In this document: piece by piece, positions 12,691 to 30,129 of the stretch
How positions within the stretch are numbered: the stretch's first letter is position 1
Layout of the letters: every line of letters starts with the position of its first letter
Origin: an uncultured Thermoprotei archaeon
GTDB lineage: Archaea > Thermoproteota > Thermoprotei > Thermofilales > B15-G2
Length of the DNA stretch: 64,000 nucleotides
Assembly: GCA_965367815.1 (NCBI GenBank)
Contig: CBDUKN010000003.1
Location: forward strand, 103,649-167,648
Direction of reading: 5' to 3'
The notes under the pieces: generated by a model
Told to the model about the DNA's origin: nothing
What the model saw: only the letters and a program-made list of their open reading frames with translations
The model's database searches: none
Position numbers and translations under genes: made by a program

Positions 12691-15600
12691 TTGATGTTAA
12701 ACAAGAGTAAAGCGACTTCTTTACTTCTAGCAACTCTACTTGTATTCGGCTTCTATTACGCTGAAGCTGTTCTCTCTCAGCCCAACATACTTAAGCTCCT
12801 CGCTGGATCCTGGAGAGCAACTAAAGCTGGCTGGATAATAGTTCACATAGAAGGAGACCCCTACAGAAGAGGTTTCCAGCACGGCTACTGGCTGGCAGAC
12901 GAAATAGTAGAGTCTATTGGCGCACTCAAGCTATACCTTCAACACTACCACGGTATTTCCTGGAAACAGGCAGTAAATCTCTCGGTTAGCTTAATGTGGT
13001 CTAAAGTCCCTGCAGAGCTTCAGAGCGAAATCTTCGGCATAGCAGATGGAGTAAGAATAAGAGGCTACGATATTACTTGGAAAGATATTTTTACAAGCAA
13101 TGCTTTCATGGACCTCGAAAGCTACCTTAATTCAAGGCGCCTCAGTAGTACTTCACACTACTTGTTCCTAGAGCTCCACTCAAGGTGCTCCGGCTTCATA
13201 GCCACGGGAAGCGCTACTAAAGACGGAGGAATAGTAGTAGCCCACAATACTTGGTTTGCGTACTTCGTAGCCAGGTACTTCAATGTATTCATACACATTA
13301 AGCCCGATAAAGGCTACGAAATCTTCATGCAGAGCTTTCCCGGCTACATGTGGAGCGGCACAGACTGGTACATAACTAGTGCAGGGCTAGTTATATCTGA
13401 GACAACTATCTCTATGTCGCTTTTCAATGAGTCAGGAATACCTGTATTCGTTAGAGCGAGAATGGCCGCCCAGTACGCGTCCAGTATAGACGAGTGGGTA
13501 AACATAATGCTCACAGGAAACAACGGAGCATACTCCAATAGATGGTACCTCGGAGACATCAAAACAGGTGAAATAGCTGTAGTAGAAATAGGGCTCTCAA
13601 CTTATGCAATCAACAGAACCAAAAACGGGTACTTCGTTTCAACAAACATGGCTGTCAACCCGAAAGTAGCACAGGAGACAAGAAGTCTCTGCAGAAGCCT
13701 CGTCTGCAGCGGGTACGCCAGGTACGTGCGCCTTAATCAGCTTTTTGAAGAATACTACGGTAAAATAGACCTTGAGCTAGCTAAGAAGTTTATTTCAGAC
13801 GACTACGACGTCTACCTTCAGAAAAAGACTCCTACTCATCGAACAGTAAGCATGTGCGGTGAAGTAATTGGAACTCCGTGGGGAGCAGTAGACGCGAAAG
13901 TAGCAGACTCTAGTTTAATTAAGAAGCTTCAAACACTAGCTATTTGGGGTCACCCGAACAAAATGGCTTTCGATGCTGAAGATTTTCTCAAAAAGAACCC
14001 CAAGTGGAGCTGGCAGAAAGACTACTTAGTAGATTTCCCATCTAATGAGTGGGTTCTTCTCGAGCCTTCACCTAAAGTAGGCAATTTAGCTGAACTCGAA
14101 ATAGGAGTAGAGAAAGCTAAAGAGTACTTGTCAAAAGCAGTAAGTGAACTAGCTACACTGAGATCAGTAGGCATTTACTTAAAGAGACTCGAAGACCAGG
14201 CTAGCTACGCCGCCAGCTTACTTGATGAAGCGCGGAATTTAAGCGAAATAGGCGACATGTACTCTTCAGTTGTTCTTTCCCTTAGAGTAATAGCTATCTC
14301 TAAAACAATTACTAAGATGTGTGAAGTACTGGAAACGCAAGCAATATCTTCTTTGCCTCTGTACACATTTCTAGCAGCAATACCTATTGTTTCCCTACCG
14401 AAAGTACTTGTAGAAGAAAAAGCTAGTAGAAAAACAAGAATAGCAGTAGCTGCAGTTCTCACAATAATAATATTTTTGCTACATCCTGGAGCTCTGCTAG
14501 CCTTAAAGAAAACAGAGTACAGTGTATTCTATGACTCCCTGCTATGGTTTATTTTCGCTGCAGTATTCTTCTACACGCTAGTAGAGCTACTTCCATCTAA
14601 AGCTCCAGAAAAACCCAATCCAAGTGGATTCCAGCTACTATCAGCTTTCTTCGCGTACCTAAATATGAGCTTCCGGAACTTCAGAAAACGCAAACTCCGC
14701 TTCTTCTTAACGCTCACTACAATAGTTCTAGCTCTATCAGGTATACTGGCTTTTACTTCAACTGAAGTAAGCCCGGGCCCAATGCTACTAGAAAGTATGC
14801 CGAGCGGTACTTGTGAAAACTTTATTGTAGTTAGGGGAAGAAGCTACCGGCCAGTACCTTCAAGTATACTCGACTTAACTAAAGACCTTCCGCACACGGA
14901 AATAAGGTACGGCACCGGAATATCTTCGTACTACAGAGCTAGAGTCTACTTGCCTAAAGGAAGAGTATGGTTCTACGGAATACTAGCTGTTGAAGACAAG
15001 TACACTTCCAGTATGCTGAAGAAATATATTGTTGAGGGAAGACTGCCGGAGAACTCGGGTGAAATAGCACTACCTTCATATACTAAAAACTATGGAGCAA
15101 AGCTAGGCTCTAAGATAACAGTATACATTGGAGGCGCGGGCTGGTATAAGCTCACAATAGTAGGCTTCTTCAGCAATAAGATAAACGAAATAAAAGATGT
15201 CGACTTAAAGTCGCCGCTACCCTACTACATTGAAACAATATATACTGAAGGAGGAACAATTTACAGAACTAGGCCAGTCGACGGAGACCGCTTAATAATA
15301 GTATCCAGCAAAGACGTCGGCAGATTCAATTTAAGAATACTGTCAGTGCTCATACCGACGACTTCTATGGAAGACAGCTACAGGCTAATGAAAATTATAC
15401 TAGACTCTGTACCCGACGTCGCAGTATACGTTGTCGGCGGAGGCTGGGTCAAAGGCTTCGTTAAAGCGGAAGTAATGAAGCTTAGAGGAGGAGAAGCAAT
15501 AGTACTGCTAATCTTCGCGGGCTTAATGATGTTCGCCACAATGTCTGCGTCGCTGTACGAGAGGCTAGATGAGCTCAGAACAATGTCTGTTCTAGGGCTA

Positions 15601-16293
15601 TCTCCGACACAGCTCCAAGTACTAGGCCTCACAGAAGACTTTATCTACGCCCTCCTCACAACACCTTTCTCCTTCATAGTAGGAATGTTTCTCAGCACTA
15701 CTGCAGCCTACATGGGCGTAGAAGTATTAGCCTACAAGTTCTCCGCAACGTCGGCAGCAATGGTCTTCTTCTTCTCCTTCGTAATATGTGTTCTAGCATC
15801 CTATCCCGCTATCAGAAAAGCCTCTGTAGCAGCCACACCTTCACTTGAGCTGAAGTGGAAGCTCGAAGCAAAGAAAGTCAAAGGCTACAGAGGCCTACCG
15901 CTCTTCATAATAAATGTCCCCATAAGGTTCCCTGAAAAAGAAATAGACGAGGTTCTGAAAAATGTCGTCTCATACTTCAAGAGAGCTTTTAGCGAATATG
16001 GTGTTTTCGAGAGAGTAGACAATATAAGCTACGAAAAGAAGCCTGACGAAAGAGTGCTCAAATTCAGGTACATGAGAATGAGCGAAAGAGACTTCGAAGT
16101 AGAAATCAAAGTAGTGGCCAAGAAAATACTAGAGGAAGACAGACCATACTACAAAATGACAATATACCTTCAGCAGCTCGGCGCAGGAGCAGGCTACCGC
16201 GAATTCAACTACAGAGTGCTCTCAATGGTAAGAGAAGTGCTCCTTAAAAGTAGAGTACTGAGTTCTAAAGGCTACAAGCTTTTCAGAGACTAG
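12691..16293 (+). CDS. Fusion: signal peptide, phospholipase-B-like/C45 Ntn cysteine hydrolase, helical bundle, MacB/FtsX-type permease, C-terminal soluble domain
   Basis: HIEGDPYRRGFQHG, nucleophile RCSGFIATG, AHNTW; NFRKRKLRFFLT, EGRLP and YERLDELRTMSVLGLSP MacB/FtsX motifs. Confidence 0.85.
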   Translation: MMLNKSKATSLLLATLLVFGFYYAEAVLSQPNILKLLAGSWRATKAGWIIVHIEGDPYRRGFQHGYWLADEIVESIGALKLYLQHYHGISWKQAVNLSVSLMWSKVPAELQSEIFGIADGVRIRGYDITWKDIFTSNAFMDLESYLNSRRLSSTSHYLFLELHSRCSGFIATGSATKDGGIVVAHNTWFAYFVARYFNVFIHIKPDKGYEIFMQSFPGYMWSGTDWYITSAGLVISETTISMSLFNESGIPVFVRARMAAQYASSIDEWVNIMLTGNNGAYSNRWYLGDIKTGEIAVVEIGLSTYAINRTKNGYFVSTNMAVNPKVAQETRSLCRSLVCSGYARYVRLNQLFEEYYGKIDLELAKKFISDDYDVYLQKKTPTHRTVSMCGEVIGTPWGAVDAKVADSSLIKKLQTLAIWGHPNKMAFDAEDFLKKNPKWSWQKDYLVDFPSNEWVLLEPSPKVGNLAELEIGVEKAKEYLSKAVSELATLRSVGIYLKRLEDQASYAASLLDEARNLSEIGDMYSSVVLSLRVIAISKTITKMCEVLETQAISSLPLYTFLAAIPIVSLPKVLVEEKASRKTRIAVAAVLTIIIFLLHPGALLALKKTEYSVFYDSLLWFIFAAVFFYTLVELLPSKAPEKPNPSGFQLLSAFFAYLNMSFRNFRKRKLRFFLTLTTIVLALSGILAFTSTEVSPGPMLLESMPSGTCENFIVVRGRSYRPVPSSILDLTKDLPHTEIRYGTGISSYYRARVYLPKGRVWFYGILAVEDKYTSSMLKKYIVEGRLPENSGEIALPSYTKNYGAKLGSKITVYIGGAGWYKLTIVGFFSNKINEIKDVDLKSPLPYYIETIYTEGGTIYRTRPVDGDRLIIVSSKDVGRFNLRILSVLIPTTSMEDSYRLMKIILDSVPDVAVYVVGGGWVKGFVKAEVMKLRGGEAIVLLIFAGLMMFATMSASLYERLDELRTMSVLGLSPTQLQVLGLTEDFIYALLTTPFSFIVGMFLSTTAAYMGVEVLAYKFSATSAAMVFFFSFVICVLASYPAIRKASVAATPSLELKWKLEAKKVKGYRGLPLFIINVPIRFPEKEIDEVLKNVVSYFKRAFSEYGVFERVDNISYEKKPDERVLKFRYMRMSERDFEVEIKVVAKKILEEDRPYYKMTIYLQQLGAGAGYREFNYRVLSMVREVLLKSRVLSSKGYKLFRD

Positions 16294-16328
16294 AAGATTA
16301 ATTTAAGACAGCTGTTTTTAATTACTCG

Positions 16329-18242
16329 ATGAATAAAACCAAGTATTTATATACACTAGTAGCTTTACTGGCATTGAGTATATTTCTAAACGCCTTCTTA
16401 GCTGCACAGCCCATACCAAAGCTATTTTTCTGCAGAAGCAAGTCGTCGTTTTTAACACTAGTACCTGTTTCAGCGGCTACAGATACGCTCTTAATTCTGA
16501 GCGCCAACAGCTCTGAGGAAGCAGTACTCATAGCTAACTTCAAGAAGTACTACAGCGCTGAAGTAGTCGAAGCACCAGAAAATCCCCTTAAAATAGCTTT
16601 CTCGACATTAGGCACAAGTACAATAATTTTCGCTAACGTCAGCTCTCTGAAAAGCGTTCTCTACGGAGCATACTTAGCTGGAATACTCAAAAAACCTGTA
16701 GTTTTCTGCCGCGAATACAGAGTATTCAGCCAGTACTTAGCTCAGTACTCTCCCAAGAAAATATACCTAGTAGAGCTCTCTTGGAAAACAAGTGTAGAAG
16801 CGGTCTACTTCAAGAAAAGCGAAGCCGTAGTAGACTATGTCCTAAAAGAAAACCTCGCTAGAAAATTCATTGTCGTAACTAATCTAGGAGACGAGTACGC
16901 TGTAGTAGCCCCGTACTACGCTGCAATTAAAAAAGCAGTACTCTATGTATCAAGCGACGTCACTAAAGACGAGAAGCTAGTAGAGCTCATTAAGAGAGTA
17001 GAACCAGAGTACGTAGTATACATTGCTTCCCTAAAGTACCTTAAGGGAGAAAAATATAGCACTATCAAAGACATCTACGGAGCATGCCTCAAAGGATTCG
17101 ACAAAGACTACTTAATTCCAGCAGTATCTCTTCTCTCAGGAATAAGCATATTCGATGTCACTATGCTTATTGCTAAAGCAAAACTATACAACTTAGCTAA
17201 AGGAGACTGGAAGCATAGAGTAGCTCAAATCTACATGTATAACTCGTGGCCAATAGCAGTAAAGATGGCCTGGCTTCTCAAAATGTGCAATTACAGCGTA
17301 GTGTGGGTGTCATCAAACTTTAAGGGAACAAACTTGACTGCTGCAGACGTAAGCAAAGTGCTTAGAGAAAGCGGAGTACTAACTTACATAAACTTACATG
17401 GATCCCCTTACTCTATGGCTCCTACGACAGCAGGTCCCTCAGTCATAACTCCTCGCACACTACCGCTTCTTCCTCCGACAGTAGTCTTCACTCTATCGTG
17501 TAGCACATGCGACTTCCAAGAACTGATCAGTGCCGAAAAAAGCATAGCTTTTAGCTTCATTAGAATGGGGGCATTAGCCTACATAGGCTCACTTTACGTC
17601 GAGCTCGGAGGAGCAGAAACAAGTACAGCTCACCCAGAGCTACTGCTCATAAGTATTCTCAAGGGAAAAACTCTAGGAGAAGCAGTAAAATACGTGCTAA
17701 ATCTCCACATAGGAGAGAGGAAGGAAAAAGATATTGCAGCTAGAATACACGCAGTACTCATAGGAGACCCCGAGCTAAAAACATTCCCCAACGTAAATCT
17801 CTCCCTCTACAAGTTTAGAGTACTAGAAAAGAACAGGAAATTCGAAATAGTTCTAACTAAATCGACTACAGTAGTCTTCATAGACGAAATTGTCGTCAAC
17901 GCTAAGAAAGAAGACATTAAGAAAATAGATATTCAGGGGCAGAGCGTACTCAGGTGGATTGTATACGAAGAGAAAGGTAGTAAAACAAGAATATTGGTAT
18001 TCTTGTCTAGAGCTTTCTCAGAAATGGGCAATATTGTTGCTGGCGAGAAATTCATTATAACGATATATTATAAGAACCCTATGGCCCAGTACATGATAGT
18101 CTTAATAATTCTCCTAGTAGCATTATTTATAGCTGCAATAATACTAAAAGAAAGAATGAAAGCCAAGAAAACTCGAACGCGTTCAGTAGAGACCGGGCTG
18201 GATCGCTTGCCATGCGAAGGTGATACCAGTGCCCAGCGCTAG
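16329..18242 (+). CDS. Membrane-anchored gingipain-like peptidase (C25, clan CD)
   Basis: His-Gly YINLHGSP, Cys TLSCST, GALAYIGS, TLGEA, LIGDP; signal peptide and C-terminal TM helix; overlaps the convergent gene by 60 nt. Confidence 0.75.
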   Translation: MNKTKYLYTLVALLALSIFLNAFLAAQPIPKLFFCRSKSSFLTLVPVSAATDTLLILSANSSEEAVLIANFKKYYSAEVVEAPENPLKIAFSTLGTSTIIFANVSSLKSVLYGAYLAGILKKPVVFCREYRVFSQYLAQYSPKKIYLVELSWKTSVEAVYFKKSEAVVDYVLKENLARKFIVVTNLGDEYAVVAPYYAAIKKAVLYVSSDVTKDEKLVELIKRVEPEYVVYIASLKYLKGEKYSTIKDIYGACLKGFDKDYLIPAVSLLSGISIFDVTMLIAKAKLYNLAKGDWKHRVAQIYMYNSWPIAVKMAWLLKMCNYSVVWVSSNFKGTNLTAADVSKVLRESGVLTYINLHGSPYSMAPTTAGPSVITPRTLPLLPPTVVFTLSCSTCDFQELISAEKSIAFSFIRMGALAYIGSLYVELGGAETSTAHPELLLISILKGKTLGEAVKYVLNLHIGERKEKDIAARIHAVLIGDPELKTFPNVNLSLYKFRVLEKNRKFEIVLTKSTTVVFIDEIVVNAKKEDIKKIDIQGQSVLRWIVYEEKGSKTRILVFLSRAFSEMGNIVAGEKFIITIYYKNPMAQYMIVLIILLVALFIAAIILKERMKAKKTRTRSVETGLDRLPCEGDTSAQR

Positions 18243-20105
18243 AGCTAGGCTTCCTCCAGCCCAGATTCCTGCAACTATGCTCAATAGGTAGTTTCTGGTC
18301 CACTCGTCTCCTTTTTTCCTCCTGATTATTTCTTTAATTATCCAGCCTATAAACGGCGAAGTAACTGAGCTCGGTAGAGCGCCTATACCCCAAGCTAAAC
18401 CTATAGTAGACAGTACAGATGAAAGGAATGGCACTAGTTCCCACACTACTCCGAAAATGAATCCTGCTATTAGCCAGTCTGGCCTAATGTAAGTGAATTT
18501 CTTTGTAATGAACATTACTAGCATCGCGGCGTCAGGGTAGAATGTTGGTGCTGGAAGTATACGTGAGGGGATGTCGTAGAGGTGCCAGAAGAGGTAGCCG
18601 AAGAACAGTCCGCTGATGCTAGCCATTATTCCTCCGATGACGTGTGCCTTGATAATGCTCATAGGCTTTGTTCTAGTGAGCTCAGCTGCCTTGAAGCCTA
18701 TGCAGATTAATCCAGGGTCGCCTGTTACACCTGGACCTCCTAGGAACGGCAGGAACCATCCTTCTACACCGTTGTAGAAGGCTATTAGTAGGGCTTGCTG
18801 AGCATACGGAATTGTTATACCTGAACCCATTAAGCCCGCGAAACGCCCAGCGCTCAGCGAGTTTACTAGTGCTAGACCTATTGTAATAGTCGGTATAAGC
18901 CATACTGGGAGATTGTCGTCGGGGTAGAACGTTATATCTACTATGTAGCTTAGTATACAGAGTCCAAGCGAGCCTATAAGCCACACTATTATACACTTCT
19001 TAGCAGACCATATTCCAAGCTCGCTTTCCTGCTCTTTGCTCAGCGAGAAAATACTCATTATTCCTTTAACAACGCCCTTAATGTTCTTGACGAAGGGCAC
19101 TATTGCTGCAGCAACAGTTATTCCAATACTAATGCTTAGCCAGAAGTGGAGCATTGTCTCCATCCACACGCCTGTTAGACCAGGCCCCATCATCGGTGTA
19201 CCTGGCTTCCACTTGTAGAGCCCTAGTCTCACTAGGATATTGTTTCCAAAAATCATTGTAGCTACGTAGCTTACTACAGCGCCGTAGATTACTGCGTCAG
19301 GTATAATCATTCCAATGCTTATAGCCAGAATATCGGCAGTAAAGCTCAGTGTTGCTCCGAAGAGAGGAGTATAGTCAAACATTGTTGTTAAGTCGATGTG
19401 TGTCGGGAAAATCTGTATTGGAACAGGGGATCCTGTAATAACCATTAGCAGAGCTGGGGCAATATAGTAGGCTGTTCCGTAGAGAAATGCTATGAATGCT
19501 GAGAGACAGAAGATTTCATATCTCTTCGACTCGCCTTCCTCGGCTGCCAGGCTTTTAGCTAGCTCGGCTGCTAGAGCACCGGTTGGGAATGGAAGTTTCT
19601 CGATTTCAATGAAGATCTGTCTCATTAGGAAGGATAAGCCTACTAAGACGAGTATGCTGAAAGGTAGGCCTATGTAGCCTAGTGTAATTGGGAGAATCCA
19701 GTCTGGGTGGAAGATTGTTCTCTGTATTAAGGCGGGCGAGTTCGCTGGAGGTACTACGTATATAGGTATTTTGTCTGCTATGCCTGCCTGCCTAGTTATG
19801 GGAGATTTTCTCAAGAAGACGTTGTACGCTATTCCTGTTACAGCGCCTACTGCGGCGCTAGCGCCCCACCTTATTGTAGCTAGCTCGCTTTCGCTAAGGG
19901 GGCTTCTCATGAGTCTGGCGAGTTCTCCGAAAATAACCATTGTGACGTAGGCGGCGTAAATAGGGCCTACGCCTATTCCTGTCGATAAAAGAACCCAGCC
20001 GAAGGCTGGGGTCATTATTAGGCTGCTGAAAATCATTGCGAGAATAACTCTGTCAGTAAATCCTTCTCTGAGACCAGTTACGCTGGCTTCAGTCTTACCT
20101 GACAT
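18183..20105 (-). CDS. OPT-superfamily-like oligopeptide transporter
   Basis: Polytopic membrane protein; GFTDRVIL N-terminus, LSESEL, IEIEKLPFPTG, YDIPSRILPAP, IVAGIWAGGSL. Confidence 0.75.
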   Translation of the reverse strand: MSGKTEASVTGLREGFTDRVILAMIFSSLIMTPAFGWVLLSTGIGVGPIYAAYVTMVIFGELARLMRSPLSESELATIRWGASAAVGAVTGIAYNVFLRKSPITRQAGIADKIPIYVVPPANSPALIQRTIFHPDWILPITLGYIGLPFSILVLVGLSFLMRQIFIEIEKLPFPTGALAAELAKSLAAEEGESKRYEIFCLSAFIAFLYGTAYYIAPALLMVITGSPVPIQIFPTHIDLTTMFDYTPLFGATLSFTADILAISIGMIIPDAVIYGAVVSYVATMIFGNNILVRLGLYKWKPGTPMMGPGLTGVWMETMLHFWLSISIGITVAAAIVPFVKNIKGVVKGIMSIFSLSKEQESELGIWSAKKCIIVWLIGSLGLCILSYIVDITFYPDDNLPVWLIPTITIGLALVNSLSAGRFAGLMGSGITIPYAQQALLIAFYNGVEGWFLPFLGGPGVTGDPGLICIGFKAAELTRTKPMSIIKAHVIGGIMASISGLFFGYLFWHLYDIPSRILPAPTFYPDAAMLVMFITKKFTYIRPDWLIAGFIFGVVWELVPFLSSVLSTIGLAWGIGALPSSVTSPFIGWIIKEIIRRKKGDEWTRNYLLSIVAGIWAGGSLALALGTGITFAWQAIQPGLY

Positions 20106-20162: not shown

Positions 20163-23100
20163 CTACTCTTCTTTCAGATACTTTGACAGCTCTTCTTTAG
20201 CTGTCTTGATGTAGCGCTTGCGGTCGGCTAGAGTCAGTGCTCTCCACATCAATAGCTGCTTTCTTACAGCGTCGGCGAACTTTCTTACTCCTCTCCTGTA
20301 GACGTAGTCTATTCCGCTTACTCTATTTATGTCAAGTGTTGTTTTAACTATTTGTGAGCCAGCTGGTACGTGGAAGTGCAGATCGCTGGTCATTACTACT
20401 CCGCTGTCGAAAGGCTTCACTTTAACGGTAGTGTGCAGTATAGTTGTCTCGCCTTCGGCCGAGACTTTCTTGCATAACTCGATTTTATCTATCATGAAGT
20501 CTGCTGCTGTCTCAGATCTGTGCAGGTTGAAGTATTCTATGAGGTAGTTTATTAGACCGTCTAGCTCAAGTGGGCTTACCACTACTGGGATATTAATCAT
20601 GTAGCGGTCTCCTCTTTTGATACCTACTGTCTCTATACGCCATCTGCGCTCGAAGGACGGCGTTACTGCTTTAGATGCGACTGATACAGGGTATATTGCG
20701 GCTGTAAGCGTAATGAGTATTGATAGTCCTACTGCACCAGCTACCCATGAAGATGAGGTGTTCAACACTAGGCCTGGTATTAGCTTAGGCAGTACTATTC
20801 CGCAGAGGTAGCCTAGTACTCCTGAGACGACACCTATAATCATGAATTCTAGTAGGAACAGTCCAGCCACGTGTGTCGGCGACAGACCTATAGAGCTCAG
20901 TATAGAGACTTCTCTTTTGCGCTCGTAGACTGCGCTCAGACATGTGTTGAGTATAATGAACACTAGTATTCCCACAGGAATTAGTGCTTCTCTACCGATA
21001 ACCTGTTCTGAGAGTATTTTAGCATATACTCTTACTTCCTTGTCTTTTGCAGCACATATCTTGTATTTAATTCTGTAAGTTAATCTCTGGGCAATTTCAT
21101 ACACTTTACTTGGGTCTTCGAGCACTACTGCTACAGAGAAGACCGCGCCGTGGTGTCTTAAAACAACCTTGTAGGGGACTATGATTATTTCCTCGCCTTC
21201 AAGTCTACGCGCCTCTAAAGCCTGTACACGGCCGCCTCCAGGAGCCTCTATAGCTAGAGGTGTCACTAAGTCGTTATTCGGGTCTCTAATCGACTCAAGC
21301 CACTCTGCATTGAATATTCCTACTACTTTGAGTGCTTCTCCTTCGAACGTTAAGTAGTCTCCTATACTTATATTATACTGAGTTGCCAGTATGTCAGGTA
21401 TTAAACACTCTTTTACATCGTCTGAAGAGAAGTACTGGCCTATAATATAGCCTTTCTTGAGAGCGTCTTCAATATATGTGTACCTCTCTCCTTGAGAGAG
21501 CCCTAAAATACCCTTTACAAAAATCATTCTTCCCTTATAGATTAGCTCGTATCCTTCTTTTCTCTCACCGCCTCTCATTACTTCGGGCCTAATAAACTGT
21601 ATTAGTCCCCTTTCAAGATACGCTCTAGGAGCTATTGCTTTAATAATGTCTGAGAGCTCTCCTTTAAACTGTGTTATGGCCTCAAGTGGAACAGGAGCTA
21701 TTTCTCCACGTACTATCAGTAGGCCGTCGTAGGTTATGGCGTGTTCGGGTAGTTTGTAGTGTTCTATAAGAGTTACGATTTTAGTAGTTGTAACCGAGAG
21801 TGTACTGACTAGAGTAGCTACTACGACCATTAGCGAGACCATTGTTAGTCCTGTTCTAAGTTTACGTCTCCTGAGGTTACCCGCGCCTAGAGAAGCAGCC
21901 ATTATTAGTGCGCTAGCTCTGCTTATGTCAGAGAAGTGTACTCCCGTAGTTTTCAGGCGGAACTTCTTTGCCGTTTCAATAACCCTTGACAGTATTAGCC
22001 CGAGAGGTGCCATTATAACAAATATCAGAACAAAAGCTATCACAACTAGGGGCGCATTTGATGCTAGCGCAAGGGCTGGGTGCACAAAGTACATTATAGA
22101 AGTCGAAGTGACTAGGAGAAGTGCTATTGCGAGAGCTCTCTTGCGCAGCGACTCGAAGTTAAAGAACAGTCTTTCGGCGAGAAACGCGAATGGTAAGGCT
22201 AGTAGAAGGAAGATTGCTGCCGCGAAGCTTGTATCTATCATTGTTCTCCTGAGGTCGTCGTATACTGCTCTATAGTAGCTCCAAGCAGCAATAGCTAGAG
22301 CTATGCCTTTCTCATACTTCTTCTTGGCTATAGCTTCTTCTGCTTTCTTGAGAGTCTCGTTGGCTATCTCAAAGTAATGTAATATTGTAGGCAAGTAGAG
22401 CTGATGAGCCAATGCTTTGTGCATGTACTGGCTACATAGTAGCTGGAACTCCTTGGCGTAGACTAGTGGAGAGCACTTGATTAATACTTGCTCACAGCCT
22501 GTAGGTGTTATACCGTATCCACTATTAGTGAGTACTACTAGGTGGTATGTTGAGTAAGATGGGAATATTATAACATCCCATGGAGGACCAGGAGGTATTG
22601 AGGGATCTGCACTGACATAAATTGCAACGTAAGGTCTCAGAGTTTCTCTAGACATTGTGTGCCACTTGAGGTCATAGTTTAAGCCAAAGTATCTTGTGCT
22701 GCTCTTAGTGTTGTGGTTCACTACGAGTATAACCGGTATCAGTGGCTGTAGAGACTCTGGGTCAAGGAGGTCGGAGAGTATTATTGTAGCAGCCTTGAAG
22801 AGCGAGGTTCTCACTGTATATTCAGGGGCATTTATTCTAACGCGGAAGCTTGGGAGAGCTGTATCACCCATGTTAGGCATGTATCTATCTCCGGTCTTGT
22901 AGTCAAACTTGTATGCATAGAAGCTGTAAGGACCTCTATTGTGTGGAGCAAGCGCCTTAAGCACAGCAATACCATGTTCATCTGTCTTAACTATAATTTG
23001 GTGGTTTACACTAGATGAAATAAAGTTAAACTGCGCCACTACTAATGCCTCGGGCACCGGGTGATACCTCTGCTCTGCCTCTGAGTACTCTTCGACAGAA

Positions 23101-24647
23101 ACTATTGCTTTCGGTATGTTACGCTGGTCTACTCTACTGAACTCTAGTGGGAAGGGCGCGTCAGCTGAAGCAAGTTTCTCTAGCCATACTACGGCAATAA
23201 ACGCGTAGTAAATAGAGTTAGATAGCCGTGAAGCCGTGCTCATGTAGGTGTCCGCTGGAGTGCCTCTGAGTGGAGAATACGTGTCTGCGGTTATAGCTAT
23301 ACCGTATCCTCCAGCCTGCACAAGAGGCTCTATTTCAAAGTATTTTCTCCAGAGGAGCTGGTAACTATCTGGGTTATAGTAGGGTGAAGCTGTTATTATT
23401 CCTTCTTGTGTAATAAGGTTAAAGAGAACAGATTTTTCTTTATATAGGAATTCTATTAGATCCAGTATACCAAAGTCGGGGTTGCTGAAGAAACTTTCTT
23501 CGGTGAGCCTCTTACTTTCGGGAGTTGCTCCATAGAAAGCTCCAGCGTCGAGTAAGGCTATACGTGTTTCGCCTTTAGGCTCGTAGTATGCAGATGGGTC
23601 TAAGTGAATCATTAGCTTAATGTCTGTTAAGTTTATTGGAGCCAGAGGCTTTTCAAAAGCATGAGAGAAAGCAAATTCTCTCGCACCCGCGAGAGCTTGG
23701 TGATGTCCTGAGAAAGCAATAAAAGCTACAGTACGTAAAGGCTTTTCGTCCTTAAATAGCTTAGCTATAGCCAGTAGAGAGGATATGCCTAGTGCTTCAT
23801 CTGCACCAGGAGACCAGGCCGGAGCAACAGACCATGAATCAAAGTAAGCTGTCAATGCGACAACTTCATCAGAATATTTAGAGCCTTTCTTGAGCGCTAT
23901 AATGTTATATGCTGCAACATTCTCGAAAGTCATATTCACTACTATTTTTGCCTTAACTCTTTCTCCAGCATCGAGCTCTGAGAGGATATCCTTGAAGTCG
24001 TTCCAGTCTACAGCGAGCCTAGGAGCGTATATAGGTAGCTCAGAAAACTTGTCTGCTGCCTCAATTTGAGTTACACTTCCTGAAAGAGGATTAACTACAA
24101 AGATAATTGCTTTAGCGCCTAGAGAAATAGCTCTCATCCACTCATATCCGCTGTCGAACTCCATGACCACGATCTTGTTGTCAATATCCTTCCCGTTCAT
24201 TTCTTCTTTGCCGTGTCCAATGTAAACTAGCTCAGCTGTAATACCGTTAGGAGTATAGCATGTTTCAACAAGGTTAGGGACCAAAGCATAAGCTTTAATG
24301 ACCTTATGATAAGGAGACAGGATCTCAACATAAGAGCCATAGTCTATTGGAACCGTTACAGTAAAGTTCTCTACATAAACATCATACCCATAGCTTTTGA
24401 GAGATTCGACAATGTAGTTTACTGACTCGTAGTAGCCCGGATAGCCTACAACTCTAGAGCCTCTCGAGGCGAAGAACTCTAAGTGTGTCCTTACTTCAGT
24501 CGAATAGTACTTGGAAAATTCATTTAGCTTAGTTTCATAGGCGTCTCCCGCGGACAGAAGAGGTAGTTGCATTTGGGGTATACATAGTATAGTTAGTACT
24601 AGAATTAATGCAATGGTCTTTATGTTACCGGATCTTACAACCGGCAT
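20163..24647 (-). CDS. Fusion: signal peptide, PA domain plus M28-like peptidase domain (atypical ligands), helical bundle, MacB/FtsX permease, C-terminal soluble domain
   Basis: GSRVVGYPG, AELVYIGHG..GAKAIIF (PA), NIIA..TAYFDS..PGADEALG, FSGHHQALAG; NLRRRKLRTGLT, YERKREVSILSSIGLSP. Confidence 0.85.
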   Translation of the reverse strand: MPVVRSGNIKTIALILVLTILCIPQMQLPLLSAGDAYETKLNEFSKYYSTEVRTHLEFFASRGSRVVGYPGYYESVNYIVESLKSYGYDVYVENFTVTVPIDYGSYVEILSPYHKVIKAYALVPNLVETCYTPNGITAELVYIGHGKEEMNGKDIDNKIVVMEFDSGYEWMRAISLGAKAIIFVVNPLSGSVTQIEAADKFSELPIYAPRLAVDWNDFKDILSELDAGERVKAKIVVNMTFENVAAYNIIALKKGSKYSDEVVALTAYFDSWSVAPAWSPGADEALGISSLLAIAKLFKDEKPLRTVAFIAFSGHHQALAGAREFAFSHAFEKPLAPINLTDIKLMIHLDPSAYYEPKGETRIALLDAGAFYGATPESKRLTEESFFSNPDFGILDLIEFLYKEKSVLFNLITQEGIITASPYYNPDSYQLLWRKYFEIEPLVQAGGYGIAITADTYSPLRGTPADTYMSTASRLSNSIYYAFIAVVWLEKLASADAPFPLEFSRVDQRNIPKAIVSVEEYSEAEQRYHPVPEALVVAQFNFISSSVNHQIIVKTDEHGIAVLKALAPHNRGPYSFYAYKFDYKTGDRYMPNMGDTALPSFRVRINAPEYTVRTSLFKAATIILSDLLDPESLQPLIPVILVVNHNTKSSTRYFGLNYDLKWHTMSRETLRPYVAIYVSADPSIPPGPPWDVIIFPSYSTYHLVVLTNSGYGITPTGCEQVLIKCSPLVYAKEFQLLCSQYMHKALAHQLYLPTILHYFEIANETLKKAEEAIAKKKYEKGIALAIAAWSYYRAVYDDLRRTMIDTSFAAAIFLLLALPFAFLAERLFFNFESLRKRALAIALLLVTSTSIMYFVHPALALASNAPLVVIAFVLIFVIMAPLGLILSRVIETAKKFRLKTTGVHFSDISRASALIMAASLGAGNLRRRKLRTGLTMVSLMVVVATLVSTLSVTTTKIVTLIEHYKLPEHAITYDGLLIVRGEIAPVPLEAITQFKGELSDIIKAIAPRAYLERGLIQFIRPEVMRGGERKEGYELIYKGRMIFVKGILGLSQGERYTYIEDALKKGYIIGQYFSSDDVKECLIPDILATQYNISIGDYLTFEGEALKVVGIFNAEWLESIRDPNNDLVTPLAIEAPGGGRVQALEARRLEGEEIIIVPYKVVLRHHGAVFSVAVVLEDPSKVYEIAQRLTYRIKYKICAAKDKEVRVYAKILSEQVIGREALIPVGILVFIILNTCLSAVYERKREVSILSSIGLSPTHVAGLFLLEFMIIGVVSGVLGYLCGIVLPKLIPGLVLNTSSSWVAGAVGLSILITLTAAIYPVSVASKAVTPSFERRWRIETVGIKRGDRYMINIPVVVSPLELDGLINYLIEYFNLHRSETAADFMIDKIELCKKVSAEGETTILHTTVKVKPFDSGVVMTSDLHFHVPAGSQIVKTTLDINRVSGIDYVYRRGVRKFADAVRKQLLMWRALTLADRKRYIKTAKEELSKYLKEE

Positions 24648-24868
24648 CGAATCCTATTCTTTTAAACAATCTAATTAAATTTTCGCCGACAAATAAATTC
24701 CTTTCTAACTTTAACTTAAAGAAGAAGCCCTAGACTACGTATAGTTCTACTTCTACTGAGTACTCAGCCGGATAAACACACTGAAAACACTTTCAACTGA
24801 ATACTTATTTAACTATGTAAAATTCAATATATTAAGTGGTAACTGTAGCAGACTCCACCAGTCTGTTC

Positions 24869-24899
24869 AGTATATATACTTTACTGTAGGGTTTAAATA
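24869..24899 (+). promoter_or_regulatory. TATA box with an adjacent 12-bp palindrome upstream of the second OPT-like gene
   Basis: AGTATATATACT at 24869-24880 and TTTAAATA at 24892-24899, ~29 nt before ATG 24928. Confidence 0.5.
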
Positions 24900-24927
24900 G
24901 TTGAGTTGTTATAACTCTGCGACCCGT

Positions 24928-26913
24928 ATGTCTGAAGGAACTGGTAAGACCGAAGTGACCGAGAAGGGACTAGCTGCCTACAGACTGCCCATAAAGGGTC
25001 TAATACTAGGCATAATCGGAATGCTCCTCGCTGTATGGATTATCAAAATAATCGGCCCTGTCAGCGGCTTCCTACCCACAGCTGAAACATCATTAATGTT
25101 CATTATCCTCATAGCCTTAATAACATCATTCCTGCCTCCTAAGCTCAGGCTATCAATGGAAGACTATGTAGTAATCTTCGCTATGATCTACGCGGCTCCA
25201 GCTGTGAGCGATGGTTCATTATTCTTCTCTCTACCAATATGGATTCATACAGATGTATATTCCTGGCTCAACAGTATGAAGGCACAAGGCCTAGTGCCTT
25301 CTTGGGTCTTCGGACCCAAGGAACTATACGACTTAGCTCTTAAAGGAGGAGTATCTCCACCATGGGGACAGCTAACCCCATGGATACTGACAGGATTTGT
25401 TGTCACAATAGCTTACGCTCTAGCCTACATGCTCGCCGCCGCTGCCTTCAGAAGGCAGGTAATTGAAGTAGAGAGAATAGTCTTCCCGGTAGCTACAGCC
25501 ACATACACTTCAGTAATAAGCGCTTACGCGGTGGGAGAAGAAGCCAAGGCCCCTCTACTAGGCACTAAGAGAAACTGGATGATTGTAGGACTCTTAGTAG
25601 GATTCCTCCTAACAGCCTTCACTGAAGGATACTTAGTCTCAAGAGTAGCACCCTGGCTACCAGTAATACCAGGCACCACTGATCTCTCGCCACAACTATG
25701 GAAAGCCGTGCCCGGCCTAATGCTAGACATGTATTGGAACAGCTTCTTCCCATGGAGCTTCTTTGGATTCTTCTTCCCAATGGAGAGCCTGATAGGCATC
25801 AGTATAGGCGCTATCGTAACATACATGATACTGCTACCACTAGAAATTAGAATGGGACTAATACCTTCGTTCGACATGTCCATGAGCAAAGAAGACGTAT
25901 GGTTCTATGCGTTCAGAGTTGAGGGTTTCAAGTTCTTCTTCGGAGCAGTAGCTATGATCAACGCTGTAGTGATCGCATACTATATTACAGGTCTCAAGTC
26001 ACTAAGAGAAACATGGAAAGAGAACCCTGAAGACGCATTCGGCCGCTACAGAACAACAGCCATACTAGCTATTGTAGGCATACTTGTGTTCCTAGCAGTA
26101 GGCGTAATTTTTGGAGGATTCCTCCCAGCAATATTCCTCATAGCACTAGACATACTGTTCCTCGCCAACATGTTCTGGATTCGCGGCATTGGAGAATGTA
26201 ACTTAATGTGGAGTGTCTGGGCCGTCTACTTTATGGATGCACTACAGATTTGTGAAGTAATGGGTGTTGTCCAGAGAGGTGTAGGTGAAGTAACACCTAT
26301 GCTAGTAGGAACATACGCTCCAATGATGCTAGCATTAGAGACTTCAAGTATGGCTGGAGTAGCCTACATGGAGACAAGCAGATTCGCTTTCTTAGCCAAA
26401 GTCAGTCCCAAGAAAGTTGCAGCAGCTCTCATAGTAGGCTTCATTATTGCATACTTCATTGAATCCATTATTTCAGCTCAGTTAACATTCCAGTTCGGCA
26501 TAAGGCACGACTACTTTGGTGCATGGGGCTACGGATACTACATATTCTTCTATCCATATAGAGCTATTCACCAAGTAGACGTTATTGAGGCCTGGTACTC
26601 GCTAAGCGGCGCAGCTATACCCTTCTATGCCTTCTGTTTCATACTAGGCTTCGCATTAACGTTCGCTAGATACAGGTGGGCTATACCAATAAGCGCTATC
26701 GGTCTAGCCTTCGGCATGGGCCTAGATCCATGGAGCTTCGGCTACACGTTCATACCATACCTCGTCATCAAGTGGCTAATGCTCAAGCTAGGTGGCACTA
26801 AGCTAGTAGAGCAAGTAGGTGCACCATTCTTCGCCGGTGCCTCTGCCGGAGGAATGCTAGCAGCCTTCTTCGCAGGCATTGCTGCATACTACCAGGCAAT
26901 ATACGGAGGATAG
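24928..26913 (+). CDS. Second OPT-superfamily-like transporter (DUF6785-like)
   Basis: Polytopic; LSMEDYVVIFAM, GGVSPPWG, FRRQVIEVERIVFPVA, KWLMLKLGG..PFFAG; start moved from TTG 24901 to ATG 24928 on TATA spacing. Confidence 0.75.
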   Translation: MSEGTGKTEVTEKGLAAYRLPIKGLILGIIGMLLAVWIIKIIGPVSGFLPTAETSLMFIILIALITSFLPPKLRLSMEDYVVIFAMIYAAPAVSDGSLFFSLPIWIHTDVYSWLNSMKAQGLVPSWVFGPKELYDLALKGGVSPPWGQLTPWILTGFVVTIAYALAYMLAAAAFRRQVIEVERIVFPVATATYTSVISAYAVGEEAKAPLLGTKRNWMIVGLLVGFLLTAFTEGYLVSRVAPWLPVIPGTTDLSPQLWKAVPGLMLDMYWNSFFPWSFFGFFFPMESLIGISIGAIVTYMILLPLEIRMGLIPSFDMSMSKEDVWFYAFRVEGFKFFFGAVAMINAVVIAYYITGLKSLRETWKENPEDAFGRYRTTAILAIVGILVFLAVGVIFGGFLPAIFLIALDILFLANMFWIRGIGECNLMWSVWAVYFMDALQICEVMGVVQRGVGEVTPMLVGTYAPMMLALETSSMAGVAYMETSRFAFLAKVSPKKVAAALIVGFIIAYFIESIISAQLTFQFGIRHDYFGAWGYGYYIFFYPYRAIHQVDVIEAWYSLSGAAIPFYAFCFILGFALTFARYRWAIPISAIGLAFGMGLDPWSFGYTFIPYLVIKWLMLKLGGTKLVEQVGAPFFAGASAGGMLAAFFAGIAAYYQAIYGG

Positions 26914-27090
26914 GGTAATAAAATCTTAATTATTTACCATTATTTTTTCCAAATCTACTTTCTGACATAAGATTGCGTTTACTTGTTTTTAATGTAGAAA
27001 GATATAGCTCTAATTTACTCTAATTATTCTAACAAGAATTTCTATCGATGATAAAATATTTATTGAGGAGGTTAATTCAGAATAATAGCT

Positions 27091-30000
27091 ATGATGACTT
27101 CAAAATATTTGCTAATGGGGCTAGCAGCAGTAATACTAGTTCAGCTAGCTCTAGTCCATAGTCAGCCTAGCATATATATTGAAGTAAAGGGTGTCGTAAG
27201 AGATGCTGTAACAGGTAAGCCTCTGGGAGATACAATTATCGTAGTCTACAATAGGAGCGCGGCAAAAGCTTCTCCAGTGCTCATTAAGACCGACAGTGAA
27301 GGCCGTTTCTCTATAGGGCTTATTCCTCAGTTGAGCTATACTCTGCACTTTATTCATGCCAATGAAAAAGGTTTAATAGACTATGTTCCTGCATGCCTTA
27401 CTATAGAGAAAAACGCGGTGTCAGTAGAGTGTGAAGTGAAGCTCTATCCTGGTGCAGTTCTATGCATTAAAGGAGACCTATACTATATTGGCGGAGAGGT
27501 TTCGCGGTGGAGGCGCTACGTTGTCTTAAATGTTGAGAACCGGAGGTACTCTGAGGTATTTTCCTGTGGAGAAGCTGTAGTCAAGACTATTACTGGTGAA
27601 TCTGGTCGAGTTAAAGTAAGTCTGCTAGACGAGTACGGATCTGTACTGTACTTTGTGCTGAAGAACAGTCCTATATCGAAAACACTCAACGAAAGTATTG
27701 TTGTAGTTCCCGCAGACTCGCCTATAGTTATTTTAGCTACAGCGCCCGCTAAGAACTACAGGACAGGCTACTTCGATGAAGTACACTTCTACGTAGATAA
27801 TCCTACTCTAAGGAAGGGGCTTTCTCAGGGAACTTTCCTCGTATACGATATTACAGCTGACTCTCTCAGCTACTGTATTAAGCTAGTTGAAGAGGATATA
27901 AGGAAGCTCGAGTCTATGGTAAACGAGTTCGAGAGTATAGGCTTCTATGTCGCTGAGGAGAGGTACAGGTATCTTGACGAAGCGAAGAGGCTTGTAGAGA
28001 GAGCTAGAAGCTACATTATAGAGACTGGAGTTGAAGAAGCCTTAACTATGCTGGAGAAAGCTGACGCTATTGTCTGGCCAGGTGAGAGAGGTATACTTTA
28101 CAACAGGCTGATGTTCATGAAGCTCGTCGCTAAAGAAAGTGCAGCAGTACTCCCAGTGTTACTTGCTGTATTCGCTATAGCTATGGGCATGTTCTTTCAC
28201 GAAGACTTGAAGAAAAAAATAGCTACGACGGTAGCTTTCTATGTGTTGTTCCTCGTGCTCTTCATATATTCTTATCCAGGCTTTAAGCTAATAGATGCAA
28301 CTAAGTTCACTGTAAGCACTATAGGCTCGCTGGCTGGGGCGCTAGCACTTTTCTTCGTGCTTCCGCGCTACTTTAAGGAACTCGAGGTTCCGGGTAAGGC
28401 GTCGTTTTCAAGTATTGTGGCAATAACAGCGTCTATTGCTAAGAGATATGCTAGAGTAAGGAAGCTGAGGACAACGATTACTATTTTCTCGCTGGCGATA
28501 CTGATATGGGCTTTCACAGTACTCACATCTGTCTCTACAATACACACTATTGTTTCAGAAGCCCCAGTCAACGTACTCTACTCGGGTACAGCAGTTGTTG
28601 TTAGAGCATACTACAAGGATATGCCTGAGTCGCTGTCTCTACAAGATACTGGTCTCTGCGAGCACTTCTTTAAGCCGAAAGTACTCGCTGTTAGAGCCTA
28701 CCTCAAGCCTACTTTTGCCGGAGAATCTAAGATCTATGTTGGCGGCAGGAGAATAGTATCTATTATGGGTATAGGGCCTGAGGAACGTGAGTTCTGGCTT
28801 AAAGGAAACGTGGTTGAAGGAGATTTAGCTAAACTCGATGATGAGGGAGTGCTGCTACCAAAGTCTCTTGCATACAGGATTGGAGCAAAGGTAGGCGATA
28901 AAGTAGTGCTCTACATAGAGAACAGGATCTACGGTGTTTACAAAGATACTTTGACAGTAGTAGGCATATACGACGATGCTGCTGTAGGGAACTTGGACAT
29001 AGATAAGAAGCCGGTACTGCCCTTCATTCTCTCTGGAGAAAATATCGTTTACTGTAATGCGTCTAGTACAGTTATTGTCAGCTGGAAGTACTTGATGTAC
29101 AGGCTGTTCCCCGACACGAAGACAGGTATTTCCCGCGTATCGAGCGTATACAGTATAGCTTTAGTTCCTGGAAGCGGGGTCAACGTAGAGGCGGCTACAA
29201 GGAGTTTTCTAGAGTGCAAGGGTATAGGCTACTATGTCGCAGTAGTTAAGGATGGTTCTGCTCGCTTTTACCACTTCGGTGAGCGCATGGTTATAGTAGG
29301 TTCCTACGAGCTACTGTTCCCAATACTAATAGTAGTCGGCAACGTAGCCGTAACAATGTACAGTATTGTTAGAGAGAGGCACCGCGAAATATTCATACTC
29401 AACGCGCTAGGCTACAATCCGCTGCAGATAGCTTCCTTGTTCTTAATGGAGTCTATTATCTACGGACTAATTGGGGGAGGAATAGGCTATATTTCTGGTA
29501 TAGTTACATACAAGCTTATGACAACAGAGTGGTTTAAGCCATTCCAGTTTATTGTGAGAGAAAAGCTCGAGTGGTACTGGAGTATAATTGGTGTCACGCT
29601 GTCAATAGTAATATCGATGCTGTCTTCATTCAGGCCAGCTCTCTCTGCAGCCTACAAGGTTTCTCCGACATTATTTAAGAAAGCTAAAGTCACTGAGGAA
29701 GAGAAAATCGAGCGTGAAGAAAAGTACTTAGTCACATACACTTCGAAGACCATTGGCATGCCTATACGCGTACACGAGGACGAAGCAGTAGTCTTCTACT
29801 CATATCTCTACACTAAGCTCAAGGATCTGGAGGGAGGAGTTATTGAGCGTATAGAAGACTTAGAGGAGCTCGAGGAAGAAGAGCACCCCGACGGCAAGCG
29901 TGTAAAGAGATTTAAGTTCAAGTATGTTTCAGACACAACTAAAGGAAAAGTTGTCATCGACTGTGAGCTAATAATGACGAAGATGCCTAAGACAGACTAC

Positions 30001-30129
30001 TATACAGTAGAGCTAGTAGCTAAGCCGAAGGAAGAAGAAATCTCAATAGTCTACATAGACCAGGCGGCGGCAGTCATTAAGGATATAGTAATGGGCTGGC
30101 TGAAGGAAAGAAAGTTCCACGTAGGCTAG
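27091..30129 (+). CDS. Fusion: signal peptide, carboxypeptidase-regulatory/Ig-like domain, helical bundle, MacB/FtsX permease, C-terminal soluble domain
   Basis: VKGVVRDAVTGKPL..TDSEGRFSI; RYARVRKLRTTIT; GAKVGDKV; RERHREIFILNALGYNP. Confidence 0.85.
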   Translation: MMTSKYLLMGLAAVILVQLALVHSQPSIYIEVKGVVRDAVTGKPLGDTIIVVYNRSAAKASPVLIKTDSEGRFSIGLIPQLSYTLHFIHANEKGLIDYVPACLTIEKNAVSVECEVKLYPGAVLCIKGDLYYIGGEVSRWRRYVVLNVENRRYSEVFSCGEAVVKTITGESGRVKVSLLDEYGSVLYFVLKNSPISKTLNESIVVVPADSPIVILATAPAKNYRTGYFDEVHFYVDNPTLRKGLSQGTFLVYDITADSLSYCIKLVEEDIRKLESMVNEFESIGFYVAEERYRYLDEAKRLVERARSYIIETGVEEALTMLEKADAIVWPGERGILYNRLMFMKLVAKESAAVLPVLLAVFAIAMGMFFHEDLKKKIATTVAFYVLFLVLFIYSYPGFKLIDATKFTVSTIGSLAGALALFFVLPRYFKELEVPGKASFSSIVAITASIAKRYARVRKLRTTITIFSLAILIWAFTVLTSVSTIHTIVSEAPVNVLYSGTAVVVRAYYKDMPESLSLQDTGLCEHFFKPKVLAVRAYLKPTFAGESKIYVGGRRIVSIMGIGPEEREFWLKGNVVEGDLAKLDDEGVLLPKSLAYRIGAKVGDKVVLYIENRIYGVYKDTLTVVGIYDDAAVGNLDIDKKPVLPFILSGENIVYCNASSTVIVSWKYLMYRLFPDTKTGISRVSSVYSIALVPGSGVNVEAATRSFLECKGIGYYVAVVKDGSARFYHFGERMVIVGSYELLFPILIVVGNVAVTMYSIVRERHREIFILNALGYNPLQIASLFLMESIIYGLIGGGIGYISGIVTYKLMTTEWFKPFQFIVREKLEWYWSIIGVTLSIVISMLSSFRPALSAAYKVSPTLFKKAKVTEEEKIEREEKYLVTYTSKTIGMPIRVHEDEAVVFYSYLYTKLKDLEGGVIERIEDLEELEEEEHPDGKRVKRFKFKYVSDTTKGKVVIDCELIMTKMPKTDYYTVELVAKPKEEEISIVYIDQAAAVIKDIVMGWLKERKFHVG

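Follow-up and report, generated by a model that had tools for sequence, protein, structure and literature searches.

A conserved MacB/FtsX-type membrane chassis carries interchangeable N-terminal domains in a large family of archaeal proteins

The permeases of Type VII ATP-binding cassette (ABC) systems, among them MacB, LolC/LolE, FtsX, YtrF, HrtB and YbbP, share a fold of four transmembrane (TM) helices in which a large outer domain separates TM1 from TM2, and carry the FtsX Pfam domain with an E-R-x-x-E motif after TM2. In canonical members, the TM2-TM3 region contacts the ATPase, and the MacB/FtsX fold is regarded as a mechanotransmitter powered by ATP. In FtsEX, acting with EnvC, PcsB, CwlO or RipC, it serves to activate cell-wall hydrolases. 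Here, we analyze a stretch of 64,000 nucleotides (nt) from an uncultured Thermoprotei archaeon of the B15-G2 lineage (contig CBDUKN010000003.1 of assembly GCA_965367815.1, positions 103,649 to 167,648; hereafter, the window), in which three long open reading frames (ORFs), P0001, P0002 and P0003, had been predicted to join one FtsX-type membrane part, the chassis, to exchangeable N-terminal cargo domains (Table 1). We find that the three proteins are paralogs within a large archaeal family built on a single conserved chassis of about 750 amino acids (aa), and the view of this chassis as a modular platform with interchangeable N-terminal domains is supported.

The chassis shares the four-helix fold with its outer domain, the FtsX Pfam domain and the E-R-x-x-E motif with the Type VII permeases, which are also its best sequence and structure matches. 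Unlike these permeases, it has a helical bundle and three additional TM helices upstream of the four-helix module, an N-terminal ectodomain and a tail of about 150 aa after TM4, and its genes lack a fused or adjacent ABC ATPase. Like the FtsEX systems, it joins an FtsX-type module, a helical element and an outside hydrolase-like domain, but in this family a single polypeptide contains all of these parts, its gene has no ftsE-like neighbour and the host is an archaeon. Furthermore, unlike in the FtsEX partners, the helical bundle of the chassis leads into the extra TM helices, and whereas the output of FtsEX is peptidoglycan hydrolases, the cargos of the chassis are C45, M28-like, Ig-like and GH2 domains. 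What is new in this family is the predicted fold of the tail, the loss of the M28 catalytic pair, the linkage to OPT-family transporters and the existence of long paralogs without an adjacent ABC ATPase.

The three ORFs are present where predicted, and all the motifs quoted for them occur in the translations of P0001, P0002 and P0003, respectively: SVGIYL, HQLYL and SIGFYV; LHPG, VHPA and SYPG; DVDLKSPLP, DPNNDLVTP and DIDKKPVLP; TPSLELKW, TPSFERRW and SPTLFKK; as well as RKLR and ER..E. The C-terminal parts align pairwise over 574-622 columns at 25% identity, with BLASTP E-values of 7e-23 (P0001/P0002), 1e-9 (P0001/P0003) and 5e-14 (P0002/P0003). With pairwise identity of just 25%, the resemblance might be attributed to a generic FtsX domain, which all three contain (PF02687; 36.4, 46.7 and 53.4 bits against a cut-off of 25.5), combined with chance similarity of hydrophobic segments. 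However, profiles built from 140 representatives from other genomes (9 of 149 were dropped as at least 70% identical to ORFs of the source genome itself; E-values for Z = 4,918 ORFs of the source genome) match all three proteins in three separate regions (E 2.4e-6 to 1e-47). For P0001, P0002 and P0003, respectively, the E-values are 2.4e-6, 1.1e-45 and 9.8e-12 for the block preceding the FtsX module (helical bundle plus extra TM helices), 6.7e-15, 4.2e-47 and 8.9e-18 for the outer domain, and 1.9e-10, 3e-42 and 1.9e-8 for the tail. The entire chassis is, moreover, recognized over its full length in hundreds of frames. Thus, with both the pre-FtsX block and the tail recognized from other genomes, the similarity is not confined to the generic FtsX domain, and the explanation by that domain and chance, being already refuted, has a practically negligible probability. 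Among established families, MacB_PCD (PF12704) is matched by P0002 below its cut-off (21.1 against 27 bits) and by some relatives above it (28.1-39.6 bits), and NCBIfam scores are far under all family cut-offs, for instance 31-42 against 362 bits for lolCE. The most conserved stretch of the chassis is E-R-x-x-E...G..P in TM2-TM3.

Hydropathy and counts of lysine and arginine residues give the following order: an N-terminal signal/anchor helix, the cargo on the outside, three extra TM helices, an inside loop of 31-36 residues with 6-9 Lys/Arg, FtsX TM1, an outer domain of 237-256 aa, TM2-4 and the tail on the inside. Measured from the last hydrophobic segment, the tail spans 158-166 residues; measured from the conserved TPS motif, it spans 152-166. 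In P0001, the helical bundle starts at about residue 468 and is followed by hydrophobic segments at 551-574, 579-607 and 612-636, the Lys/Arg-rich loop, TM1 at 668-693, a 237-aa outer domain, TM2-4 at 931-1042 and the tail. A full-length AlphaFold2 (AF2) model of P0003 (predicted local distance difference test score, pLDDT, 81.8; predicted template-modelling score, pTM, 0.68) has the same order as the hydropathy analysis. Between the cargo and the membrane it contains a three-helix bundle (residues 255-328), followed by the three extra helices TMa-c (335-431), an amphipathic helix (439-456), TM1 (458-478), the outer domain (480-736), TM2 (738-762), a short helix (764-772), TM3 (777-809), TM4 (829-857), a low-confidence linker and the tail (886-1011). 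The best Foldseek matches of this model are LolE, LolC, MacB, YbbP, HrtB and YtrF, with E-values down to 2e-11 and with the N-terminal domain of LolE (5udf) aligned at TMt 0.50; the PDB sequence matches of the chassis profile are MacB, YtrF, LolF, LolC and LolE. The predicted succession of cargo, helical bundle, TM helices and FtsX module is therefore borne out by both hydropathy and the AF2 model. The chassis is a seven-helix module in which three extra TM helices precede the 4-TM permease fold of the Type VII (MacB/LolCE/FtsX) class, and it also comprises the extracellular three-helix bundle, the Lys/Arg-rich cytoplasmic loop, the outer domain of about 250 aa and a family-specific cytoplasmic tail of about 150 aa.

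The source genome (2.45 Mb in 37 contigs) contains 18 FtsX matches, most of them in frames of 970-1533 aa, and the chassis profile identifies 11 full-length paralogs along with partial or broken ones (14 matches in the genome-set profile search). Beyond this genome, we identified the whole chassis together with its tail in 26 of 41 related genomes, with 1-14 copies each, and in 69 of 301 genomes (28 of 123 genera) of a sample of the phylum; many complete genomes of the same class gave no match. An exhaustive profile search yielded about 1,745 representatives of 50%-identity clusters at E<=1e-30, the best 150 all at E<=1e-156; by comparison, a word-indexed protein search with the chassis profile returned four clear relatives among 21 matches, swamped by generic FtsX proteins. 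The relatives are automatically named 'FtsX-like permease family protein', 'M28 family peptidase' or 'ABC transporter permease', with Candidatus Bathyarchaeota or Bathyarchaeia as their source, and the corresponding ESM Atlas clusters are labelled 'hypothetical protein'. As regards the heterodimers that the original prediction considered possible, a class of about 1000 aa is co-located with the M28 class only partly (about 9 of 28 rows). In a full-text literature search, which did not extend to supplementary files or subscription journals, we found no description of the fused-ectodomain architecture, and no paper in the full-text literature was found to join FtsX with Bathyarchaeia or the KA1 domain with FtsX.

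Some copies in the source genome are irregular. One chassis paralog, L006:9257-11707 (-), equivalent to G000:C12:22907-25357, is split by a single in-frame TAA into ORFs of 601 and 170 aa; its neighbour, in tail-to-tail orientation, is an M28-class paralog that is intact. Elsewhere, a 617-aa protein, L001:9707-11560 (+), equivalent to G000:C7:62667-64520, has only a partial FtsX match (profile positions 4-73 of 120), and its gene is flanked by one chassis gene of the Ig class and one of the M28 class.

As proposed, the N-termini of the three fusions are unrelated, being a C45 N-terminal nucleophile (Ntn) proenzyme domain in P0001, a PA/M28-like domain in P0002 and a beta-rich, Ig-like domain in P0003. 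The first matches the NCBIfam family C45_proenzyme (NF040521) at 143.7 bits against a cut-off of 85, and also Pfam Phospholip_B and AAT; Cys166 in its RCSGF motif falls within two residues of the extrapolated, not directly aligned, residue 1 of the mature PLBD1 chain (4bwc_B). Residues 30-253 of P0003 are beta-rich in the AF2 model, with only a weak match to CarboxypepD_reg (24.9 bits, under the cut-off of 32.3). An Ig-like module common to this cargo and the region between the M28-like domain and the bundle in P0002 was considered and dropped (best BLASTP E 7.8).

Homologs of the chassis do not always carry the same N-terminus. They bear M28/PA, C45 Ntn, CarboxypepD_reg-like, GH2, DUF4350-like or unknown domains, or none, in agreement with the interchangeability suggested by the original prediction. 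In the source genome, the cargo is M28-like in eight copies (seven full-length ORFs and one cut by a contig end), CarboxypepD_reg-like in two and C45 Ntn in one; the remainder consists of one copy with a weak TPR match, one with a weak DUF4350 match and one broken copy. In other genomes, we identified GH2 (in a protein of 1792 aa), M28/PA with extensions, CarboxypepD_reg-like and DUF4350-like cargos, several cargos without a Pfam match, and nearly cargo-free forms, of which one has 787 aa and another, of 714 aa, may be truncated. Among the 150 matches listed in the related genomes, the frame length is 1400-1699 aa in 87, 940-1099 in 29, 1100-1399 in 13 and 1700-1999 in six, with 15 shorter. 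The C45 Ntn fusion of P0001 is rare: in the sample of 301 genomes this cargo is fused to the chassis only here, and its two free-standing homologs (461 aa, 40-43% identity) are both from one other genome. In a quick, midpoint-rooted maximum likelihood tree of 28 chassis sequences, all nine M28-class rows form one clade (SH-aLRT 100) and most other cargo types are grouped as well, with the CarboxypepD_reg-like (Ig) rows in two separate sub-clades and P0001 as a long, unplaced branch. Cargo classes thus follow the chassis clades, which suggests that swaps are rare and mostly old. In some ESM Atlas clusters of relatives of 1,823-1,863 aa, LysM is present in 19% of the members, hinting at glycan-binding extensions.

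The dominant M28-like cargo lacks the canonical catalytic residues. P0002 matches Peptidase_M28 (PF04389) at 44.9 bits against a cut-off of 21.3, covering only profile positions 1-99 of 193, and its residues 58-334 align to 2ek8 with Tyr at the first His ligand and His-His at the Glu-Glu pair, which we take to be Glu151 and Glu152 in M28 numbering. This pair is missing in 7 of 7 full-length M28-class paralogs of the source genome. We extended the tally to 132 aligned large members, comprising 131 database proteins of at least 1380 aa and P0002 (the best 150 of the 1,745 representatives are biased towards the M28 class). The Glu151-equivalent is His in 114 of the 132, and at the Glu152-equivalent 47 proteins have Trp, 33 have His and 24 have Tyr (together 104 of 132); Glu is not within the eight commonest residues at either position. 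The first His ligand position holds Tyr in 59 and His in 58 of the 132 proteins, and the last His position is variable. Thus, the canonical two-zinc site is not conserved, and the commonest cargo of the chassis cannot readily be taken for a hydrolase. Nicastrin, the transferrin receptor and other dead PA/M28 ectodomains likewise place a PA/M28-like domain without the catalytic set on a membrane protein; by analogy, the domain would plausibly serve for binding here, although the membrane partners differ and the lineage is unrelated. One paralog has a weak match to the Nicastrin Pfam family (E 0.0094).

The tail profile matches 67 of the 301 genomes of the phylum sample, almost the same set as the chassis, and nearly always within frames of 1,000-1,700 aa; a few matches in short frames (201-476 aa) may be contig ends. 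An AF2 model computed from an alignment of 34 sequences (pLDDT 90.6) predicts that the tail folds as a KA1/helix-grip-like alpha+beta domain, the match being borderline. The best VIA-align matches are the KA1 domains of SAD-B (Z 8.8, root-mean-square deviation (rmsd) 2.5 over 100 residues) and MARK3 (Z 8.2), followed by SRPBCC proteins, and the predicted order of elements, beta-alpha-beta-beta-beta-beta-alpha, agrees with that of KA1. In a Foldseek search with the tail model, nothing was found at E<=0.001, and the weak rows were all Bet v 1/START-like. The C-terminal alpha+beta arrangement is thus similar to that of KA1 (in MARK, SAD and AMPK-related kinases) and of the SRPBCC/START helix-grip domains (Z 8.8-7.4, rmsd 2.5-3.6), which differ from the tail in context and show no sequence similarity to it (3-12% identity at borderline Z). 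KA1 domains bind acidic phospholipids and, like the tail, are net basic: the net charge is positive in 33 of 34 tails (median +5), with six conserved basic columns. As a separate observation, the paralog L004:11145-14306 (+), equivalent to G000:C5:48748-51909, has about 100-130 extra residues past the tail, with a weak OLD-like TOPRIM match (E 0.0068).

The M28 class is linked to transporters. The gene at 18183-20105 (-) in the window, directly downstream of P0002, matches the OPT family (PF03169) at 60 bits against a cut-off of 25.8, over profile positions 120-615 of 623, and encodes at least 10 hydrophobic segments. Six M28-class genes of the source genome, including P0002, are each directly followed by such an OPT-family gene of 613-644 aa. 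Among 30 loci with the best tail matches, all of the M28 class, an OPT-group gene lies just past the tail on the same strand in 26 (25 of the 29 from other genomes), and a gene of a second membrane protein family, of about 675 aa, lies there in two more. The window contains a distant member of this second family (Table 1); its other six members in the source genome are separated from M28-class chassis genes by a few genes at most, with four lying immediately upstream, and one member gives a weak match to the OPT-group profile (8.9e-9). In prokaryotes, OPT genes are known to occur beside peptidase genes, in pairs or fusions (Gomolplitinant and Saier 2011, PMC3061005), and here an OPT-family gene likewise shares an operon with a gene of a peptidase family. 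The partner in the present case is a membrane protein of 1,500 aa with an extracellular, degenerate M28-like domain, whereas the peptidases in the excerpted text of that study are soluble or cytoplasmic.

The long paralogs have no ABC ATPase gene beside them. An ABC_tran match is present within 5 kb of 0 of 14 long paralogs of the source genome, whereas 4 of 4 short FtsX genes in the same genome have an adjacent ABC_tran gene. In two other genomes (G004 and G008), no adjacent ABC_tran gene was found for the 11 and 9 listed copies, the nearest being about 4.9 kb away. The analogy with FtsEX drawn in the original prediction calls for an FtsE-type ATPase and is not upheld by this distribution.

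Taken together, we propose that the chassis proteins act as surface platforms for the acquisition of polymers or peptides, with the M28 class capturing peptides together with one or more OPT transporters, a reading to which we assign an even chance of being right. An enzyme or binding ectodomain would be held above the membrane on the helical stalk, beside the MacB-type outer domain, and the platform would work without a dedicated ABC ATPase, its basic tail lying at the inner face of the membrane, in the usual place of the nucleotide-binding domain. In the dominant class, the PA/M28-like ectodomain, having lost the canonical two-zinc set, would more likely bind than cleave its substrates, and together with the OPT-family transporter(s) of the same operon could capture and import peptides. 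P0001 would likewise display an autoprocessing C45 hydrolase, and P0003 an Ig-like binding module. A bolder version appears doubtful to us: that the family is an ATPase-independent branch of the MacB/FtsX fold in which a KA1-like tail has replaced the nucleotide-binding domain, with exchangeable receptor or enzyme modules, and in which a nicastrin-like dead PA/M28 receptor hands peptides to the OPT transporters of its operon, amounting to receptor-plus-secondary-transporter uptake widespread in sediment and hot-spring archaea.

Several observations weigh against the platform reading. The conserved E-R-x-x-E...G..P stretch fits a trans-acting ATPase as well as docking of the tail, and an orphan gene for a MacB/LolD-type ATPase of 243 aa is present in the source genome outside the window (G000:C4:10332-11063 (+)); the product is 74% identical to the ATPase encoded beside a short FtsX gene on contig C9, and the orphan gene stands next to a soluble ORF of 186 aa and has no FtsX-type neighbour within 3 kb. 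Furthermore, the tail of P0003 is net negative (-5), the KA1 match at Z 8.8 is close to the best Z of 7-8 that is typical without a true match, and the linker between tail and membrane is modelled at low confidence in P0003 (pLDDT about 47), so that the position of the tail is not predicted by the model. In the M28-like domain, one Asp is invariant (132 of 132), and a His (114 of 132) and a further Asp (113 of 132) are well conserved, leaving room for a non-canonical active site. As for the transporters, many of the 30 loci come from related genomes and are not independent, and none of 10 loci of the class of about 1020-1048 aa has an OPT-group neighbour within about 5 kb; hence, the linkage is not a property of the entire family, and we rejected it as a family-wide trait.

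The main rival is FtsEX-like mechanotransmission in cis, in which a shared MacB-type ATPase encoded elsewhere would dock on the TM2-TM3 helix of all paralogs, and ATP hydrolysis would move the outer domain and helical stalk, switching the fused ectodomain on or off. Such a mechanism, which extends the original prediction by a trans-acting ATPase and which we regard as unlikely, would account for E-R-x-x-E...G..P being the most invariant stretch of the chassis and for the fold matches to the ATP-driven LolCDE, MacB and YtrEF, with the orphan ATPase as a candidate partner; the helical element between cargo and membrane also recalls, by analogy, the coiled coils of EnvC, PcsB and CwlO. However, the canonical permeases of the source genome have an adjacent ABC ATPase gene, and none adjoins its 14 long copies or the 20 listed copies of two other genomes; every member has a conserved cytoplasmic tail at the site expected for the ATPase, and the commonest cargo is without catalytic residues to switch. 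The dominance of non-catalytic ectodomains, the presence of a conserved cytoplasmic domain with a fold used in kinases for regulation and membrane binding, and the many paralogs with differing ectodomains per genome would also suit a transmembrane sensor, which would pass ligand binding on the outside through the FtsX-type helices to the KA1-like tail and on to cytoplasmic partners, much as BceB-type FtsX permeases inform a kinase. We consider this quite unlikely, given that the conserved neighbour is a transporter, with no kinase, regulator or signalling gene as a conserved neighbour, and that some cargos are ordinary enzymes (C45 Ntn hydrolase, GH2). It is very unlikely, finally, that these are structural envelope proteins, that is, S-layer anchors, stalks or adhesins whose ectodomains serve as lattice or attachment modules. 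Their large size, multiple copies, signal peptide, Ig-like and degenerate enzyme-like domains and helical stalk, along with the LysM domains in 19% of the members of some Atlas clusters, would fit such a role, but the tight operon link to OPT transporters, the enzyme cargos whose family signatures are intact (C45 and GH2) and the neighbourhood of secreted hydrolases argue against it.

The family would show a new use of the MacB/FtsX fold or, alternatively, indicate that many permeases share one ATPase. Bathyarchaeia have been described as abundant in anoxic sediments, and the chassis proteins may be the main surface proteins by which such archaea meet proteins and glycans. With its members annotated as 'M28 family peptidase' or 'ABC transporter permease', metabolic reconstructions that count extracellular peptidases or ABC transporters may err on both counts.

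Table 1. Features of the locus, with positions in the window.
Feature	Length (aa)	Position	Strand	Remarks
Penicillin amidase family (Ntn) gene		10559..12610	+	80 nt upstream of P0001; N-terminal hydrophobic segment
P0001	1200	12691..16293	+	Signal/anchor helix, C45 Ntn proenzyme domain at aa 54-380 (Cys166 in RCSGF), then chassis
P0001 chassis		14092..16290	+	Hydropathy, profiles
P0001 cytoplasmic tail	152	15835..16290	+	Tail profile
637-aa gene	637	16329..18242	+	35 nt downstream of P0001; N-terminal signal-like and C-terminal hydrophobic segments
OPT-family transporter gene	640	18183..20105	-	Directly downstream of P0002; one of a 6-member paralog group
P0002	1494	20163..24647	-	Signal/anchor helix, PA/M28-like ectodomain lacking the canonical catalytic Glu-Glu, additional beta-rich region, chassis
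P0002 chassis		20166..22433	-	Hydropathy, profiles
P0002 cytoplasmic tail	166	20166..20663	-	AF2 model, pLDDT 90.6; predicted KA1/helix-grip-like alpha+beta fold (borderline match)
Polytopic membrane protein	670	24901..26913	+	Belongs distantly (E 2.6e-30) to a family of seven proteins of about 675 aa
P0003	1012	27091..30129	+	Signal/anchor helix, beta-rich Ig-like ectodomain at aa 30-253, then chassis
P0003 chassis		27856..30126	+	Hydropathy, AF2 model
P0003 cytoplasmic tail	155	29662..30126	+	Beta-alpha-beta-beta-beta-beta-alpha in the model

The genes surrounding the three fusions encode secreted hydrolases. For the 637-aa gene, we identified only a weak, sub-threshold match to Peptidase_C25, and no paralog was found beside other chassis genes. 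No PDB sequence relatives at E<=0.1 were found for this gene or the OPT gene, and these two genes and the 670-aa gene match no NCBIfam family.

Further from the fusions, the window encodes GH38, GH3 with a PA14 insert, a BNR-repeat protein, GH2 and a weakly melibiase-like protein (2386-7765, 36261-37448, 41236-42975 and 60305-62227), and such glycoside hydrolase genes near the locus suggest an organism that feeds on sugars and peptides. A 696-aa protein (45160-47250 (+)) with many weak, sub-threshold matches to Ig-like and E-set domains (CopC, MG2 and Y_Y_Y among them) is probably a repetitive surface protein. A 269-aa protein (30189-30998 (-)) contains CDC48_N and CDC48_2 only, without an AAA domain. 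Additionally, a DUF234 fragment (31088-31489 (-), 133 aa) and a fragment of the 'ATPase domain predominantly from Archaea' (32027-32485 (-), 152 aa) lie about 540 nt apart and look like a single archaeal ATPase gene that has been split or has decayed.

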